Source: Candidatus Paceibacter sp.
Lineage (GTDB): Bacteria > Patescibacteriota > Patescibacteriia > Magasanikbacterales > UBA922
Reading direction: 5' to 3'
Length of the DNA stretch: 64,000 bases
Assembly (NCBI GenBank): GCA_020725175.1
Contig: DYFM01000001.1
Location: 1,504 to 65,503, forward strand
Under the pieces are notes generated by a model. That model did no database searches and was not told where the DNA came from. It saw nothing but the letters and a program-made list of their open reading frames with translations. The translations under genes and the position numbers were made by a program. Below, in pieces: positions 14,438 to 45,613 of the stretch (the first letter of the stretch is position 1; each line of letters begins with the position of its first letter).

Positions 14438-15013
14438 ATGAAAAGGAGGAACAGAAAACGTAATCGAAAAAACGGATTTGATTATGCGGTGGATGGTTTT
14501 TATTTTATTACCATTTGTGTGAAAGATCGGATGTAATGTTTAGGACGTATTCATAACGGTCGCATGTGCGTCAATCGATTTGGAACAATTGTTTGGTGGC
14601 AATGGAAATGGTTGGAACGTCAATATTCGTTTGTGCGATTACATGAATTTATCGTGATGCCGAATCATGTGCATGGGGTGGTGGAAATATGTCGTTCATC
14701 CGTTCGTCCGACCGTTGGAATGATAATCGATGCGACGTCAACCGTAGGGAGAGGTCTAGACCTGTCCCTACGGTTGGACGAACCGGCGGTTGAACAAAAA
14801 CCATTGTCATTGTCCAATATCATCGGCGCATTAAAAACCACATCATCAAAATTGATTCATGAACATGGTTTACCGTCATTTCGTTGGCAACGATCATTTT
14901 ACGATGTTATTATCCGTGATCCGCGTGCATTATATGGTATTCAACAGTATATTCGAGAGAATCCATTAAAATGGTGGCGAGATAGAAATAATGAAGAAGG
15001 TATATTTATCTAA
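14438..15013 (+). pseudogene. REP-associated tyrosine transposase (RAYT / IS200-like Y1 HUH transposase) interrupted by in-frame TAA at 14534-14536
   Basis: N-part MKRRNRKRNRKNGFDYAVDGFYFITICVKDRM* matches the RAYT N-terminus; downstream in the same frame ...FIVMPNHVHGVV (HUH) and RWQRSFYDVIIRD...YIRENPLKWW (catalytic Tyr region). A near-perfect 38-bp palindrome (14739-14776), nested in a ~90 bp dyad, is inserted in frame. Confidence 0.6.
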
Positions 15014-24195: not shown

Positions 24196-24260
24196 CCCCC
24201 ACCCGAGGCGGGTAAACAAGGTGGGTAAACAAGGCTGACAGGTAAGGCGGACACGTGCGT
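24196..24260. repeat. Intergenic GC-rich patch with cccgaggcgg core and tandem gggtaaacaag x2
   Basis: ...cacccgaggcgggtaaacaaggtgggtaaacaagg...; core shared with the elements at 40821, 40989, 41114 and in recG. Confidence 0.5.
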
Positions 24261-34180: not shown

Positions 34181-34540
34181 TTACTTTTGAACATTAATCC
34201 AGCCACGTAACGTTCTGCCGGTTTCATTACAGTGTTTAGACAATTCTTGATATGTTTCTAACGGTAAGTATTTCAGATCATAGCTTAATAGAAGGAAATA
34301 TTTTACTTCTTCTAGTGAGCTCATGGCTACTTCATAAAAACGAAGGCTTTCTTTTGTAGTGTTTCGGTAAAATCCTTCAACGATATTGGCTGCTACTGAT
34401 ATCATTGCTCGGCGCATTTGGGATGTTACACCATACAATTCTTCCTTTGGAAAATTTCTCGTAACTTTGTATATTTCAAGAACTGTCTTATGTGCCATTT
34501 GCCAGGCTTTAATATCCTGAAAACGCGTTATTGTCGGCAT
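34181..34540 (-). CDS. Four-helix-bundle protein (23S rRNA intervening-sequence protein family)
   Basis: MPTITRFQDIKAWQMAHKTVLEIYKVTRNFPKEELYGVTSQMRRAMISVAANIVEGF... matches the conserved DL[KR]VWQ...E.[YF]GL..Q[ML]RRA..S...NI.EG motif as I recall it. Confidence 0.6.
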   Translation of the reverse strand: MPTITRFQDIKAWQMAHKTVLEIYKVTRNFPKEELYGVTSQMRRAMISVAANIVEGFYRNTTKESLRFYEVAMSSLEEVKYFLLLSYDLKYLPLETYQELSKHCNETGRTLRGWINVQK

Positions 34541-34569
34541 ACTATGAAAAATTACTAGAAACATGTTAA

Positions 34570-40124: not shown

Positions 40125-40628
40125 ATGCCACAACAAATAACTCAGGAAACCGATGTCGGAGACATTTTCTATGAATGGACGGTAAAAGAGTATGAACAGT
40201 ATGAACGCAATCGTGCGTGGTACATGTTTATGTTGACGGTAGGACTTTTGTTGGTGTTATACGGAATTTTTACGCAGAATTTTTTGTTTGTCCTTATTAT
40301 CGCGTTGGCCGGGATTATTTTGTTTATCCAAAATAAGCAAGCTCCACCATCTGTTAATGTGGCGATTACTAACGTTGGGGTGGTTCTCAATAATCGCATA
40401 TATCCATATACAGAGCTCAAAGATTTTTATCTCATCTATAATCCTCCGGAAACAAAAATGTTGTACATTGATACCAAAACAATCCTACGACCATTGCTTC
40501 GCATTCCATTGGAGAATATGAATCCACTCGATATTCGCTTTAGTTTACGAGAATTTTTACCGGAAGATCTTGAAAAAGAAACCGAGCCGTTTTTGGATGA
40601 GATGACGAGAAAATGGAGAATTCAGTAG
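40125..40628 (+). CDS. Hypothetical membrane protein (two TM helices)
   Basis: 167-aa ORF with its own terminator; no motif. Confidence 0.4.
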   Translation: MPQQITQETDVGDIFYEWTVKEYEQYERNRAWYMFMLTVGLLLVLYGIFTQNFLFVLIIALAGIILFIQNKQAPPSVNVAITNVGVVLNNRIYPYTELKDFYLIYNPPETKMLYIDTKTILRPLLRIPLENMNPLDIRFSLREFLPEDLEKETEPFLDEMTRKWRIQ

Positions 40629-40670
40629 GTTGTTTCGTAAAAAATAGCTGTATTTTTCAAGATATAGGTA

Positions 40671-40701
40671 AACCGTCCGGTATTGACGGTTTTCGTTTTT
40701 T
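40671..40701 (+). terminator. Rho-independent terminator overlapping the tRNA promoter -35
   Basis: aaccgtc-cggtatt-gacggtt hairpin then ttcgtttttt. Confidence 0.55.
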
Positions 40702-40711
40702 CGGCTATACT
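40683..40711 (+). promoter_or_regulatory. Sigma70-type promoter for tRNA-Arg: TTGACG -17 nt- TATACT
   Basis: TTGACG at 40683-40688, 17-nt spacer, TATACT at 40706-40711, 22 nt upstream of the tRNA 5' end. Confidence 0.55.
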
Positions 40712-40733
40712 ATGCTGCGTGTAAGAAATTTAG

Positions 40734-40808
40734 GCTCTCGTCGTTCAATGGATAGGACATGGGTTTGCGGAACCCAAGATCTAAGTTCGATTCTTAGCGA
40801 GAGCACCA
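40734..40808 (+). tRNA. tRNA-Arg (anticodon GCG) with encoded CCA
   Basis: GCTCTCG-TC-GTTC-AATGGATA-GGAC-A-TGGGT-TTGCGGA-ACCCA-AGAT-CTAAG-TTCGATT-CTTAG-CGAGAGC-A-CCA; 7-bp acceptor, U8, GG in D-loop, U33, purine 37, TTC in T-loop, A58. Confidence 0.75.
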
Positions 40809-41160
40809 ATAGAAGAGTCGTTTCCGCCCGAGGCGGACCCGCCTTGGGCGGGCAATGGATAGGACATGGGTTTGCGGAACCCAAGATCTAAGTTCGATTC
40901 TTAGCAGGTGCACAGTGTATAGGTGTTGGTTTGTCGGGTCATCCGACCCGATCGGGTTGAATAACCCGACGGAACCCAAGATCTAAGTTCTCCTCCCGAG
41001 GCGGATCCGTCCTGGGCGGAGATTCTTAGCAGGTGCACAGTGTATAGGTGTTGGTTTGTCGGGTCATCCGACCCGATCGGGTTGAATAACCCGACGGAAC
41101 CCAAGATCTAAGTTCTCCTCCCGAGGCGGATCCGTCCTGGGCGGAGATTCTTAGCGAGAG
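40809..41160 (+). repeat. Composite tandem array: partial tRNA-Arg copies (D-loop-to-T-arm, then anticodon-stem-to-T-arm x2), each later unit split inside the T-loop by a 30-bp GC-rich palindrome, separated by an identical 65-bp palindromic spacer; ends with a duplicate of the tRNA 3' acceptor strand
   Basis: ggaacccaagatctaagttc...gattcttagc recurs at 40770, 40877, 40972, 41097; 125-bp unit 40906-41030 is repeated exactly at 41031-41155; palindromes ccgcccgaggcggacccgccttgggcggg (40824) and tcctcccgaggcggatccgtcctgggcgga (40989, 41114); final cttagcgagagcac repeats the tRNA 3' end. Confidence 0.8.
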
Positions 41161-41164
41161 CACG

Positions 41165-41191
41165 AAAAAACTGCCAATATGGCAGTTTTTT
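41165..41191 (+). terminator. Rho-independent terminator closing the tRNA/repeat unit
   Basis: aaaaactgcc-aatat-ggcagtttttt perfect hairpin plus T6. Confidence 0.75.
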
Positions 41192-41218: not shown

Positions 41219-43196
41219 TCAACTAGTTGTTGATGAATATTTATTTTTTAACATTTTCACGAGTGCTTCGGCCGCATGTTTCGCTAGTTCTACTTTACTT
41301 ATGTTATTTTTTCTCAAATTATCATCTCCCAATGCTTCTATCATCGTGTAACAGACACCGGATGGCAGTTCTGATAAAAGCTGTCGCCAATATTTTTCAA
41401 CTGTACTACTATAACTTTCAGCAAAAAAGTTATTTCCAAAAGGAGTATTTGTCTTTTCTCCACTTATAAGAGTTACTCCATGCTGAGTAATTGTAGCTTT
41501 TGAATCATGTTTTTGAGTGCCGGAGTTTACAGCCCGTTCTGCTTTCTGGAAAATTTCAAACGCTGTTTGTTGATCTTCGATATTTACAATCGCACTGTCT
41601 GGGGTGTCATCAAGATTATCAAGTTGTGATAAGGTGCCTTTCTTGTGAAGTTCGGTGGCAATTCTTTTCGGAATAATAAAATTATTTGTGTAGAATACAT
41701 GATGCACTTTATGTTCTTGGGGATTTCCATCCTTATCAAAGGCAAACCGTGACATGTTTGGATCCATCACACGGGCATTTTTTTTGCCGGTTGTTATTGT
41801 TGTTCCTTGTATATTAGCAAACTCTTCCATCATTTTTGAGTCGGCATTTGACATGTTGCCATAGTCGCCGCGCTCTACAGGAATGGCGTACCATCCATCT
41901 TTTTTTTTTCCTCATATGAAACATATCACCGGCTACAATGCGTAAATCTACTATACTTCCGGCTTTTTTCATTCGAGTAAGTTGCTCAATCATTTCACCT
42001 TTTCCGGTGGAACTCTCTCCGGCAAATGCAAGGCCTATCCATTCTCCGCCTTTTTCTAACTGAATCTGCACACATGCTCCGTGAACAGGTAAAATAGTCT
42101 CGCCTTCCCGAAGGAGTGCTTCCGTATTCGCCATTTCGGAAATGCACTTTTTAGCGTAAGCGTGGTATCGGTGTCCTGGATCAGTATCCGTCGTCAACTT
42201 ATCAGATAAAAATCCGACATGTACTCGCTTTCCCCCTACAGGCTGGTGAGTGTAGTAGAATCTGTCATTTAAACTGTTTTCTGTAATCGTTTCGTGACTG
42301 ACTCCTAAGAAGAGAATATTGTCAAACGTCAGACCATGGAAATTTTTCGCCACCATAAATTGCTGCGAACAGGTGACAAGTTGTTCTAAAAACGTACGTT
42401 TATTAAAAATTGCTAGCGTATTTGTAACCCCAGTTCTAAGCGGTAAAGCAAGATAATCCCCCGGAACAATGGAGTCAAGTAGGGCTTTTATTTCCGGTTT
42501 ATGTTCTTCATATTTAAATCTCCCTTTTCGTTTGTTCGAGTCGGTTGTAAATATAATTTGGTTGATGAGTGGAATAACATCTGTTACGACCGGAACTTCT
42601 CTCACTATTGTGTCCAATTTTTCGTCTCCTGTTTGTATTCGTTCTTTATCTTGATCGTTAAAATGACTATACTCAATGACAAACTCATGGGTTGGATCAA
42701 GAAAAACCGATTTGTTTTCAAAGTGGAAAGGGTTTTTTTTTGTTCCTACTGCCTGTTCTATTGCACCAAACATTTGATAGAGTGACTGTTTGAGAGTGCG
42801 AAACTTTTCAATATTCTTTGTAGTTGCTTGTTCTGTGTCTTGACTTTTCATTATTCCGTAACGAATAGAGAAGGTGGTCCAGTGATTGAATAGACTCTGC
42901 AAATCTTGTCGCAATTTTGTACGATCAACCCATCGAGGTACATTTTTATTATGTATAATATCTTGTAAAATAGGCAAATTAAGTACTAAAGGTTCATAGT
43001 TTTTTTTCCACCGAGAAAAAATAGCCTTAAATTGATTACTTCCCACAATTTCTTGGGGAGATTGACACAGTTCTTCTTCGGGAGTATCTATTGGTTCTCT
43101 TGTTGGTACCGTATCGGCTGCGGTTGCTAATGCATCTTGAGATGTGATGGGTTTGTTATATTCTGGCGCTATTCCATCATTTGTTATTATGCTCAT
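41219..43196 (-). pseudogene. ~660-aa P-loop protein (resembles the PEP-carboxykinase / HprK kinase fold) split into 460-aa and 211-aa ORFs by a +1 frameshift at a poly-A10 tract (plus-strand T10 at 41890-41899)
   Basis: Deleting one A fuses the frames: ...GDMFHMRKKK|DGWYAIPVERGDYGNMSNADSK.... Motifs GLAFAGESSTGKGE, IVAGDMFHM..DGW and VHHVFYTNNFIIP parallel PEPCK GLSGTGKT / LIGDDEHGW / VSYPIYHIDNIV, from memory. Confidence 0.5.
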
Positions 43197-43411: not shown

Positions 43412-45613
43412 ATGAAGCTCACCACCAAAGTCAGTCAACTAAATCGCGTGGGGGAAGTGCTTGCTCGGCGATTGAAGCATCTCGGAATTGAAACCGTAGA
43501 GGATTTGTTATTTTACTATCCATTTCGATATGAAGATTTCAGTCAAAGCGAACAGATAAAAAAATTGAAAGAAGGAGAACAGGTGACGGTACGAGGAAAG
43601 GTGGAACTTATCGCCAATAAACGGAGTCCTCGAAAAGGAAAAATTATTACCGAAGCGGTGGTGGCTGATGACGCGGATCGGTTGCGGGTGGTGTGGTTTG
43701 GTCAGCCGTTTATCGCAAAAACAATTCATGTTGGAGATACGGTTTTTTTGTCCGGAAAAGTCTCTCGAGATATGTTTGGGCTGGTCATGAAATCACCGAG
43801 TTATGAAAAAGAAAAGAAACTTGCAAAACAGCACCTTGAAGATATTTCTTCACAGCAAAAAGATGGCGATATTGAACAGACGCACACTGGAAGGTTGGTG
43901 CCGATCTATTCTTTGACTGCCGGGATCACTCAAAAACAGCTACGTTTTTTGATTAGTCAGGTAATTTCACTCTCGTCAACACTGGAAGAATGGTTGCCGG
44001 TAGAAATATTGGAAGGGGCGGACTTGATACCAATTCAGGACGCGGTGAAAGCCATTCATTTTCCCGAAGATCGGACCGATTTGCAGCAGGCAAAAAAACG
44101 GTTGAAATTTGATGAACTATTTATTCTTCAGCTTCGGGCTGAAATGATCCGTCAGTCGATCAAACGCGAAGAAGCGCCGAAACTGGTATTTCAAGAAACA
44201 TTGATCAAAGAATTTGTTCAAAGACTACCGTTTACGTTGACCAATGCACAAAAGATTGCCACCTGGGAAATTTTACAAGATATTCAAAAATCGGAACCGA
44301 TGAACCGTTTGCTCGAAGGTGATGTGGGAAGCGGAAAAACGGTGGTGGCAGCGATGTGTCTGTATAACGCGGTGTTAAACGGGTATCAGGGAGTTTTGAT
44401 GGCACCAACGGAGATACTCGCGAAACAGCATTTTGAATCTATTGTTAGTTTGTTGGGAGAAGCATGTGCTGTCGCGTTGTTGACTGGTTCTGAAACTGGA
44501 AATTGTCAGCCCAAGGCTGATCCGCCTCGGGCGGAGAAATTGGAAATTGGGGAAAAAACAAAAAAGGGGAAAAGAGCGGAATTGTTGAAGTTTGTAAAAA
44601 ACGGAACAGCGAACATTATTGTTGGTACCCATGCGTTGTTGGTGGATGAGGTGAAGTTTAAACAGTTGGGATTGGTGATTGTGGATGAGCAGCATCGTTT
44701 TGGAGTAGAACAGCGAAAAACAATCCGCGAGAAGTCCGGGGTTGGTGGAATGACACCGCATTTCTTGAGCATGACGGCGACTCCAATTCCGCGTTCATTT
44801 GCGCTGACGCTCTACGGCGATTTAGATTTATCAATTATCAATCAAATGCCGGCCAATCGAAAGCCTATTCAGACACGACTCGTTGATCCGCATCAACGGG
44901 AGAAAGCCTATGGATTTATTCGATCTCAAGTGAAAGAAGGGAGGCAGGTATTTGTGATTTGTCCGTTGATTAGCAAGGAACAAGGAACAAGGAACAAGGA
45001 ACAAGATGTTGAGCCATCGCGTTTACTATCTTTGCAGGATGAGAGAAAGACCGTGATGGAGGAATATGAAAAATTGAAAAATCATGTTTTTCCGGATTTG
45101 CGTGTGGGGTATTTGCACGGGAAAATGAAATCGGCGGAGAAAGATGTGATGATGAAGCAGTTTGCGGCCGGAGAGATTGATATTTTGGTGTCGACGTCGG
45201 TGGTTGAGGTTGGGGTAAATATTCCAAATGCCTCGGTCATGATGATTGAGGGGGCGGAGCGTTTTGGACTCGCGCAGTTGCATCAGTTTCGGGGGCGAGT
45301 AGGGCGAAGCGAGTATCAGTCGTATTGCTTTTTGTTTACCGAAAGTCAGTCGGACAGCTCGCGAGGGAGACTGGAATTTTTTGAAAAAACTCTTGATGGT
45401 TTCAAACTGGCTGAATATGATCTCAATACGCGAGGTCCCGGAGAAGTCTATGGTACGTCCCAAAGTGGCCTCATGAATTTTCGGTTGGCAAGTATGAAGG
45501 ATACTGCTATAATCAAACTGGCCCGAGATACGGCCCGGGGAATTGATTTTGAAAAATACCCGTTACTTAAGGAAAAAGTAAAAGAATGGGAGGGGAGAGT
45601 ACATTTGGAATGA
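43412..45613 (+). CDS. recG: ATP-dependent DNA helicase RecG, with two in-frame insertions (palindromic element; heptamer repeat)
   Basis: Wedge/OB N-terminus, helicase motifs GDVGSGKT (I), DEQHRFG (II), TATPIPRS, QFRGRVGR (VI). Confidence 0.9.
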   Translation: MKLTTKVSQLNRVGEVLARRLKHLGIETVEDLLFYYPFRYEDFSQSEQIKKLKEGEQVTVRGKVELIANKRSPRKGKIITEAVVADDADRLRVVWFGQPFIAKTIHVGDTVFLSGKVSRDMFGLVMKSPSYEKEKKLAKQHLEDISSQQKDGDIEQTHTGRLVPIYSLTAGITQKQLRFLISQVISLSSTLEEWLPVEILEGADLIPIQDAVKAIHFPEDRTDLQQAKKRLKFDELFILQLRAEMIRQSIKREEAPKLVFQETLIKEFVQRLPFTLTNAQKIATWEILQDIQKSEPMNRLLEGDVGSGKTVVAAMCLYNAVLNGYQGVLMAPTEILAKQHFESIVSLLGEACAVALLTGSETGNCQPKADPPRAEKLEIGEKTKKGKRAELLKFVKNGTANIIVGTHALLVDEVKFKQLGLVIVDEQHRFGVEQRKTIREKSGVGGMTPHFLSMTATPIPRSFALTLYGDLDLSIINQMPANRKPIQTRLVDPHQREKAYGFIRSQVKEGRQVFVICPLISKEQGTRNKEQDVEPSRLLSLQDERKTVMEEYEKLKNHVFPDLRVGYLHGKMKSAEKDVMMKQFAAGEIDILVSTSVVEVGVNIPNASVMMIEGAERFGLAQLHQFRGRVGRSEYQSYCFLFTESQSDSSRGRLEFFEKTLDGFKLAEYDLNTRGPGEVYGTSQSGLMNFRLASMKDTAIIKLARDTARGIDFEKYPLLKEKVKEWEGRVHLE
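44510..44536. mobile_element. GC-rich palindromic element in frame inside recG (cccaaggctgatccgcctcgggcggag); reverse complement matches the 40824 element
   Basis: rc ctccgcccgaggcggatcagccttggg vs 40821 tccgcccgaggcggacccgccttgggcggg; encodes ...CQPKADPPRAEK... in an insertion absent from typical RecG. Confidence 0.65.
44974..45005 (+). repeat. (CAAGGAA)x4 heptanucleotide tandem repeat inside recG coding sequence
   Basis: caaggaacaaggaacaaggaacaaggaacaag encoding KEQGTRNKEQ in a loop insertion. Confidence 0.9.

Follow-up and report, generated by a model that had tools for sequence, protein, structure and literature searches.

A tandem array of truncated, hairpin-interrupted tRNA-Arg copies behind an intact tRNA-Arg(GCG) gene in a Candidatus Paceibacter genome

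In Candidatus Paceibacter sp. (assembly GCA_020725175.1), a 64,000-nucleotide (nt) stretch of contig DYFM01000001.1, here called the window, carries at positions 40671-41191 a tRNA-Arg(GCG) gene followed by a tandem array of partial tRNA-Arg copies that are interrupted by GC-rich palindromes. The functional gene lies at 40734-40808 on the forward strand, where ARAGORN and the Rfam tRNA model (61.7 bits) agree with the initial annotation of this DNA, made from its letters alone, in placing a canonical tRNA-Arg(GCG) with an encoded CCA. Its acceptor strands, GCTCTCG and CGAGAGC, pair perfectly, it contains A20, C35, G36, G37 and A73, and the CCA follows directly. The G+C content of the window is 41-42%. 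A putative sigma-70-type promoter (TTGACG-17-TATACT; 40683-40711, forward strand), which matches the consensus at 10 of 12 positions, precedes the gene, and a homologous promoter stands before the tRNA in two related loci, L006 and L009 (related loci are referred to by L numbers throughout). The overlap of this promoter with an upstream terminator, also reported initially, was found again: a terminator-like hairpin with T-run belonging to an upstream open reading frame (ORF) of 167 amino acids (aa) occupies 40670-40702 on the forward strand (hairpin proper, 40670-40692), and its 3' arm holds the -35 box. The same design is present in L009, L012, L013 and L030. At the other end of the array lies a terminator hairpin on the forward strand (AAAAAACTGCCA-ATA-TGGCAGTTTTTT; 41165-41191), identified by a repeat finder; an identical hairpin directly 3' of the single tRNA in L006 suggests that it is ancestral to the locus. 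No T-run or terminator was found between the tRNA-Arg(GCG) gene and this hairpin, and a single precursor of about 470 nt is therefore plausible, as had been proposed for the array as a whole. The segment appears to be one transcription unit with one promoter and one terminator, in which the functional gene comes first; the trailer is probably co-transcribed with the tRNA and then discarded.

The array consists of four head-to-tail copies of tRNA-Arg. Copy 1 is the intact gene, and copies 2-4 are 5'-truncated pseudo-copies which start at tRNA positions 7, 13 and 13 and are interrupted at 12/13, 35/36 and 56/57 (the slash marks the junction between two tRNA positions). The interruptions are of two kinds, a 30-bp element, P, made of two tandem 15-nt hairpins with 6-bp stems and 3-nt loops, and an element H made of two tandem 18-nt hairpins; neither P nor H duplicates its target within the array. 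Pseudo-copy 2, which like the other pieces lies on the forward strand, begins with tRNA positions 7-12 (GTCGTT; 40817-40822), which match the gene at six of six positions. These are followed by the double hairpin P1 (TCCGCC-CGA-GGCGGA plus CCCGCC-TTG-GGCGGG; 40823-40852) at 12/13 and then by positions 13-74 (40853-40913), a member of a repeat family at 95% identity. The initial annotation described this piece as a copy of positions 13-65, and those positions are indeed identical to the gene, whereas the piece as a whole spans 7-74, contains P1 and ends in a different acceptor 3' strand, CAGGTGC. Since the copy starts at position 7, upstream of P1, P1 is itself an insertion at 12/13. The L001 equivalent of pseudo-copy 2 scored 27.1 bits against a tRNA-model threshold of 29, and the other pieces were not detected by the model.

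Pseudo-copy 3 starts with a diverged stretch of positions 13-34 (40914-40932), collinear with the pieces downstream of it; the first 19 nt of copies 3 and 4 are a weak assignment because only 16 of 22 positions match, with a shuffle p of about 0.05. There follow H (TCGGGTC-ATCC-GACCCGA plus TCGGGTT-GAAT-AACCCGA; 38 bp, 40933-40970), present twice in the window and here placed at 35/36 of the anticodon loop; positions 35-56 (40970-40990; 21 of 21 matches); P2 (TCCTCC-CGA-GGCGGA plus TCCGTC-CTG-GGCGGA; 30 bp, 40991-41020) in the T-loop at 56/57; and positions 57-74 (GATTCTTAGCAGGTGCAC; 41021-41038, from the repeat finder), ending in CAGGTGC. What had been taken for a 65-bp spacer of perfect dyad symmetry is actually a 38-bp imperfect dyad, 84-86% complementary, behind the 19-nt stretch, and its sequence is better read as the two tandem 18-nt hairpins of H. 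Pseudo-copy 4 (41039-41163) repeats this order, with the presumed positions 13-34 at 41039-41057, H at 41058-41095, positions 35-56 at 41095-41115, P2 at 41116-41145 and positions 57-74 at 41146-41163, the last ending in the gene's own CGAGAGC.

Up to 41145, pseudo-copy 4 is the second of two 125-bp units that are 100% identical, and this unit is missing in L001. Tandem Repeats Finder reported 2.1 copies at 100% identity (40896-41155), in agreement with the repeat finder and with the two identical units noted initially, although their true number is doubtful. The repeat finder also recovered the tRNA 3' end four times and a 29-30-bp palindrome three times within the array. The 125-bp unit is thus equivalent to a single tRNA copy, truncated and interrupted twice, in circularly permuted form. 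Two further details of the initial annotation were borne out: P2 separates CTAAGTTC exactly from GATTCTTAG, between TTC and GATT and with no target duplication, and the last piece of the array, GATTCTTAGCGAGAGCAC (41146-41163), duplicates the tRNA 3' end and adjoins the terminator hairpin. Identity to the gene is 100% in pieces 13-65 and 35-73, but a single contiguous block of about 27 nt has diverged by about 30%.

The upstream 167-aa ORF was also found on two contigs, L001 and L002, from the Joint Genome Institute (JGI) samples 3300029892 and 3300029893. Over the 6.5 kb compared, the 196-kb contig L001 shows a single mismatch to the window, and it has one 125-bp unit instead of two; contig L002 ends within the 125-bp repeat. 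Because the same array is present on contigs from two samples, it is reproducible. The number of units, one or two, either varies in the population or lies beyond short-read resolution; a true number other than two is a serious possibility, whereas it is very unlikely that the entire array is artefactual. The doubling of the 125-bp unit appears to be the most recent step, for which exchange or slippage within the 10-bp repeats GATTCTTAGC would suffice. An exact search for GGAACCCAAGATCTAAGTTC gave no match in the metagenome and viral (IMG/VR) collections, of which the metagenome set evidently lacks the source sample.

For comparison, 89 loci were fetched by searching with the 167-aa protein and with aligned homologous proteins, and further loci were added later. 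A tRNA-Arg(GCG) gene lies near the homologue in 77 of the 89, usually no more than about 300 nt downstream and on the same strand, and in most of the 12 exceptions the contig ends too early. The pairing of the 167-aa ORF with tRNA-Arg(GCG) holds down to 28% protein identity, and recG comes next in many loci. A search of genome contigs with the 167-aa protein returned only distant homologues of 35-42% identity, the best (42%) from a metagenome-assembled genome of Candidatus Kerfeldbacteria; from this, the organism probably belongs to the Patescibacteria (candidate phyla radiation). The closest relative, L006 (73% identity in the 167-aa ORF and 77% in RecG), has a single tRNA with the acceptor GCACCCG/CGGGTGC and without CCA, followed by the same terminator, in an inverted cassette with no array. 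The array is thus not a conserved feature, and a bare tRNA was found in about 65 related loci. All tRNA-Arg genes at this locus, in the window as in the relatives, have the anticodon GCG; bacterial tRNA-Arg usually carries an ACG anticodon. Close relatives differ in the acceptor pairs 3:70 and 5:68 (GCACCCG, GCACTCG, GCTCTCG and GCCCTCG), as in L026 versus L028, the window versus L006 and L013 versus L029, with the tRNA otherwise almost unchanged. The fossil copies of the window and of L034 are of the 'other' acceptor type.

Fragments of tRNA-Arg of independent origin, broken at the same positions, are present in at least 10 lineages. Their breakpoints cluster at 6/7-7/8, 12/13-15/16, 35/36-36/37 and 56/57, and downstream fragments end 0-5 nt from the tRNA 3' end. 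In L044, two units upstream of the gene (flank, positions 1-12, a P-family hairpin element, positions 13-20) are matched by three downstream units in which such an element separates positions 50-55 from 56-72 (AGGTTC, the 30-bp P, GATTCCTAGCGAGGGCA). L043 has one upstream and one downstream unit, with hairpins nested in hairpins. In L034, an intact gene of the GCACCCG type is followed by a copy that runs from position 7, bears a hairpin cluster at 15/16 and ends in CGAGAGC, the type of the window. In L023/24 and L027 the order is promoter, 5' fragment (positions 1-12), hairpins and intact gene, the fragment of L027 being of a different acceptor type, and in L039 and L058 3' fragments from G57 onwards lie directly behind the gene. 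L040 (1851-2185) contains three nested generations of tRNA-Arg, in which the hairpin-bearing ends of the oldest enclose a complete tRNA-Arg. This middle tRNA is split in its anticodon loop, at 36/37, by a 117-bp insert with complementary flanks. The insert itself holds an intact tRNA-Arg(GCG) that is structurally of another, foreign type, and the two halves of the middle tRNA can be rejoined to a valid tRNA-Arg(GCG).

In two relatives, a GIY-YIG gene stands between a fragment and the intact tRNA. In L093, a 5' fragment (positions 1-15, a 66-nt double hairpin, positions 16-21) is followed by a GIY-YIG ORF and an intact tRNA-Arg, and the stop codon of the GIY-YIG ORF overlaps G1 of that tRNA. 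The tRNA-Ser(GCT) genes of the same loci show the same fragment layout, and in L059 a hairpin-riddled pseudo-tRNA-Ser is followed by a GIY-YIG ORF and then by an intact tRNA-Ser. A GIY-YIG gene is also present in L040. The GIY-YIG proteins of the relatives are catalytic domains of 78-88 aa without a DNA-binding domain. A separate arrangement was seen in L005, L071/L072, L079, L085 and L087, where a T-arm/acceptor 3' fragment and then a second terminator lie behind the terminator of tRNA-Ser(GCT). The T-loop of this 3' fragment contains a GC-rich insert of 100-150 nt with the shared motifs GGGATTCGAAC, GAAGCGAG and GGACAAGYGAGCGA; these inserts matched no Rfam family and could be a conserved element in their own right.

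The distribution of P indicates that it is a mobile element. Its palindrome half-site occurs seven times in the window against 0.24 expected, and four strict P copies lie in the 64 kb, all within 3.7 kb. The fourth (44506-44535) is inserted in frame in recG, where it encodes QPKADPPRAE in a variable loop; the RecG of L006, 77% identical, has a nine-residue gap at this place. P also lies within recG, at other positions, in L031 and L034. A search of IMG/VR with the stem consensus fixed and the loops free yielded 13 copies that match the consensus exactly. The viral contigs that carry them mostly have a low G+C content, and none of the copies is near a tRNA; for the 24 fixed bases, the chance expectation in this search is estimated to be far below one. 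At about 15 sites, the left flank of P is mostly TT or TTC and the right flank mostly CAA(T) or GAT(T), with exceptions. Examples are GTTC^GATTC in the T-loop, GTT^CAATGG in the D-arm and, on the other strand, TTTC^CAATT in recG. P would thus seem to prefer TT(C)^[C/G]A[A/T]T, which covers both the T-loop and the D-arm site. The initial annotation had proposed that the palindrome targets this site of the tRNA, and members of the P family do occupy TTC^GATT in the T-loop and GTT^CAATGG in the D-arm of the independent lineages L040, L043 and L044. Several of the viral copies (L094-L106) lie within short direct repeats such as gaaagtt-P-gaaagta and aaaaatt-P-aaaaatt, and the copy in recG is flanked as gaaattg-P-gaaattg; such flank repeats may reflect either duplication of the target or preferential insertion in short tandem repeats. 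An intergenic region at 24199-24235 holds a degenerate half-copy of P (CCACCCGAGGCGGG), followed by two tandem copies of gtaaacaaggtgg.

P shares several properties with the palindromes of the REP/BIME/REPIN and RAYT systems and of IS200/IS605 elements: it is a short, GC-rich, imperfect palindrome with conserved stems and free loops, it seems to follow a short preferred sequence at most though not all of its sites, with no target duplication at those in the T-loop, the D-arm and recG, and the window contains an IS200-like/RAYT-like ORF. It differs from them in consisting of two tandem 15-nt hairpins (30 bp) with no flanking guide nucleotides, in its low copy number (four in 64 kb, one of them in recG) and in entering coding genes in frame as well as tRNA sequence. 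Selfish palindromes that invade genes are known as Rickettsia palindromic elements and as mitochondrial double-hairpin elements or GC clusters. These resemble P in their double hairpins, in-frame insertion in protein genes, insertion in structural-RNA genes and patchy distribution; they belong to other host groups and have no sequence relationship to P, and the Rickettsia elements, at about 100-150 bp, are much longer. Neither kind is known to be associated with tRNA-fragment arrays.

The array sits among housekeeping genes and is flanked upstream by der, a LytR-family gene and the unannotated 167-aa ORF (40125-40628), which has a hydrophobic core, and downstream by recG, a NUDIX gene and the gene for IMPDH; elsewhere the window encodes ParAB, RelA/SpoT, TopA, DprA, RadA, SecY and aminoacyl-tRNA synthetases. 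In most relatives, recG directly follows the tRNA. In the window, two overlapping ORFs of 460 and 211 aa (41219-43196, reverse strand) lie between the array and recG, and L007 has a 444-aa ORF in the corresponding place, matched to 41219-43196 by position. The 460-aa and 211-aa ORFs matched no family; with a P-loop-like GESSTGKGE, they resemble a single P-loop protein gene split by a frameshift more than a recombinase. Next to dprA, the reverse strand (34181-34564) encodes a small four-helix-bundle member of the 23S-rRNA-intervening-sequence/bAvd family. The scan of window ORFs revealed neither a reverse transcriptase nor a cas gene. The sole candidate for a hairpin-mobilizing enzyme in the window is an IS200-like (Y1)/RAYT-like ORF at 14438-15013 on the forward strand, which matched PF01797 with 26.9-27.8 bits and the NCBIfam model REP_Tyr_transpos with 39.8 bits against a cut-off of 80. 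It contains an in-frame TAA at about 14534 and an internal, near-perfect 38-bp palindrome (14739-14776), its flanks hold neither P nor H, and it is possibly dead.

A precedent for breakage within tRNA genes is provided by SegB, a free-standing GIY-YIG homing endonuclease of phage T6, which cuts within tRNA genes at the preferred motif RAWTSGAAC and drives recombination-dependent tandem segmental amplification at tRNA genes (PMC13096335). Read on the opposite strand, this motif gives the T-loop sequence GTTCSAWTY; the T-loop of the window gene, GTTCGATTC, fits it at nine of nine positions, and P2 splits it mid-way (GTTC^GATTC). As in T4/T6, where the endonuclease genes adjoin tRNA genes, GIY-YIG genes abut fragment-bearing tRNAs in L093 and L059; the main breakpoint here is GTTC^GATTC, and the fragments are tandem. 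The two situations differ in that the amplified units here are truncated tRNA pieces rather than whole genes, in a cellular rather than a phage genome, and in that the proteins of the relatives have no DNA-binding domain and the window has no GIY-YIG gene.

Taken together, the array is, with somewhat better than even confidence, a non-functional palimpsest produced by hot-spot recombination at a tRNA gene and by invasion of hairpin elements, with two or three dead tandem copies left beside the working gene. The anatomy of the array, the recurrence of its breakpoints in at least 10 lineages and in tRNA-Ser, and the mobility of P are the observed part of this explanation. In the most likely course, breaks or recombination would occur at conserved motifs, in a few fixed places of the tRNA gene (6/7-7/8, 12/13-15/16, 35/36-36/37, 56/57 and the 3' end), and their repair would either produce partial tandem duplicates or import a foreign copy that replaces the gene. 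Selection would keep only those outcomes that include one intact gene, and the debris would lie head to tail beside the intact gene because only such products survive. The GC-rich double hairpins P and H would then settle in the redundant pieces, and last of all the 125-bp unit would have been doubled, either by slippage or by unequal exchange, at the 10-bp repeats. The breaks may be made by a tRNA-targeting GIY-YIG endonuclease of the SegB kind, given that the SegB motif fits the T-loop and that a GIY-YIG gene is wedged between a fragment and the intact tRNA in two relatives. P, in turn, may be moved as single-stranded hairpin DNA by an enzyme of the Y1/RAYT type.

Several points weigh against this explanation. 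A tblastn search of the 64-kb window found no GIY-YIG gene. The RAYT-like ORF has an in-frame stop and a score below the NCBIfam cut-off, and it is not flanked by P as the RAYT gene of a REPtron would be by its palindromes. P has no spacer between the foot of its hairpins and its boundary, unlike the ends of IS200/IS605 elements. GTTCSAWTY shows no enrichment in the window (seven observed, nine expected; it is not rarer than chance either), and the other sites of this motif carry no P; the motif alone therefore cannot explain targeting. The explanation accounts neither for the mosaic pattern, in which blocks of 100% identity alternate with one about 30% diverged, nor for the fact that downstream fragments all end 0-5 nt from the tRNA 3' end. 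The persistence of such junk in a streamlined genome is also odd, unless it is constantly regenerated.

A more specific course of events is possible, if tentative: the array may record several rounds of a recurrent selfish attack. Selfish DNA would recognise the conserved sequence of the D-arm and T-loop; endonuclease cassettes that bring a tRNA of their own would insert into the resident gene and replace it, leaving fossils such as those of L040 and L093, and P would subsequently inactivate the cleavage motif GTTC^GATTC in the leftovers.

Purely neutral local duplication, with slippage or unequal crossing-over at a highly transcribed gene, hairpins arising in situ and no site-specific agent, is unlikely. 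It would be adequate for the newest event, since the 125-bp doubling needs just 10 bp of microhomology, and palindromes generally promote slippage. It would leave unexplained why breakpoints are shared by at least 10 lineages and by two tRNA species, and why foreign-type tRNAs and acceptor types are found among the fossils. The sequence of P is kept across unrelated loci, genomes and viral contigs, which argues that P was not generated in situ. A derivation of the array by duplications alone was also attempted, but it can produce neither the divergent acceptor strand CAGGTGC nor the mosaic of identities.

The initial annotation likened the array to an attL/attR scar of tRNA-targeted integration, and such partial tRNA genes derived from integration are well documented (PMC9897764). 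On this account, tyrosine integrases would have inserted repeatedly in the anticodon loop or T-loop, each time supplying a replacement 3' segment, and the inserts would later have been deleted down to their att repeats. The direct repeats of the tRNA 3' part (here 57-74 and 35-74) do have the extent typical of att repeats, starting in the anticodon loop or T-loop and reaching the tRNA 3' end, the different acceptor type CAGGTGC suggests foreign DNA, and the two extra ORFs at 41219-43196 separate the array from recG, unlike in most relatives. However, the search for an integrase or island remnant that had been suggested was run across the 64 kb and was negative: no tyrosine or serine integrase was found with Pfam among about 50 ORFs of the window or with PHROGs and NCBIfam among the neighbours of the array, nor any phage-like protein in the 64 kb. 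The inserted ORFs, resembling a frameshifted P-loop protein, are not flanked by tRNA repeats. No island DNA lies between the repeats, whose spacing is 0-60 nt and consists entirely of tRNA-derived or palindromic sequence, and a palindrome sits exactly at the would-be crossover point. The relatives also show breaks at 7/8 and 12/13, and their upstream 5' fragments and whole nested tRNAs are not integrase products. An exact search of IMG/VR for the fragment, which a phage attP with positions 57-74 would carry, found no match. The interpretation as an integration scar was accordingly not upheld and is given little credence.

It is equally improbable that the trailer of about 355 nt is a functional RNA, either a precursor of small RNAs that mimic tRNA ends or an element acting in cis on maturation, stability or termination. 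Its single promoter and single terminator, the complete identity of parts of the fragments with the gene, the recurrence of similar arrangements among relatives and a very stable predicted fold (-177 kcal/mol, z = -8.7) are consistent with such a role. The stability of the fold is trivial, though, because the palindromes pair with each other. Architecture, number of units, side (5' or 3') and hairpin families differ between relatives, the unit number differs even between assemblies one mismatch apart over 6.5 kb, and bare tRNAs are found in the roughly 65 loci mentioned above, the closest relative included. Only tRNAs were matched by Rfam, both in the window at the gathering threshold and in 11 related loci, L001 among them, at E<=1. 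The initial annotation had named a conserved, structured non-coding RNA as the finding that would overturn its integration reading; such an RNA is unsupported because the architecture is not conserved and so many loci are bare.

An assembly artefact, of the array or at least of its second 125-bp unit, is on the whole very improbable, and what doubt there is concerns the number of units. The nearly identical L001 has one unit fewer, L002 breaks in the repeat, and a perfect 125-bp repeat cannot be counted with short reads. Against this, everything except the number of units is reproduced in the contigs from two samples and in the window, and analogous arrays are present in many unrelated assemblies.

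Even less probable is a disrupted tRNA gene of the archaeal kind, with non-canonical introns or split or permuted genes whose pieces are spliced. Insertions do occur in the D-arm, the anticodon loop and the T-loop, and the complete tRNA of L040 that is split at 36/37 by a 117-bp insert with complementary flanks would fit best. All hairpin-bearing copies in the window, by contrast, lack the 5' acceptor strand (positions 1-6 or 1-12), there is no evident bulge-helix-bulge motif or splicing endonuclease, and gene content marks the organisms as bacteria. Interrupted copies are always accompanied by an intact one, and the intron or split-tRNA reading is rejected because no locus was found with the insert in its only tRNA-Arg. 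Finally, a CRISPR or TIGR array, which would likewise alternate palindromic units of about 30 bp with short segments in tandem in a genome resembling those of the candidate phyla radiation (CPR), was rejected: the 'spacers' are identical tRNA pieces, the box C/D pattern TGATGA/CTGA is lacking and there are no cas or tas genes nearby.

Precedents thus exist for tRNA gene fragments, for selfish palindromes that enter genes and for endonuclease-driven amplification of tRNA genes. A literature search found no description of a 30-bp double-hairpin element with this target, and none, in CPR bacteria, of tRNA-fragment arrays broken at fixed cloverleaf positions or of nested tRNA genes.

The genes for tRNAs are usually viewed as passive landing pads for integrases. 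At this locus and in its relatives, the gene body itself has repeatedly been broken, duplicated, replaced and colonised by hairpins, and breakage of tRNA genes at fixed structural positions spans many lineages with very small genomes. If the agents proposed above are confirmed, tRNA-targeting homing, so far a feature of T-even phages, would extend to cellular genomes, and P would represent a new, minimal mobile element of only 30 bp that tolerates in-frame insertion in proteins. The same process would also be a source of spurious or pseudo-tRNA calls and of assembly breaks in metagenome bins of CPR bacteria. The phenomenon is lineage-wide, and the 30-bp consensus of P together with the fragment signature provides simple search keys for genome surveys.

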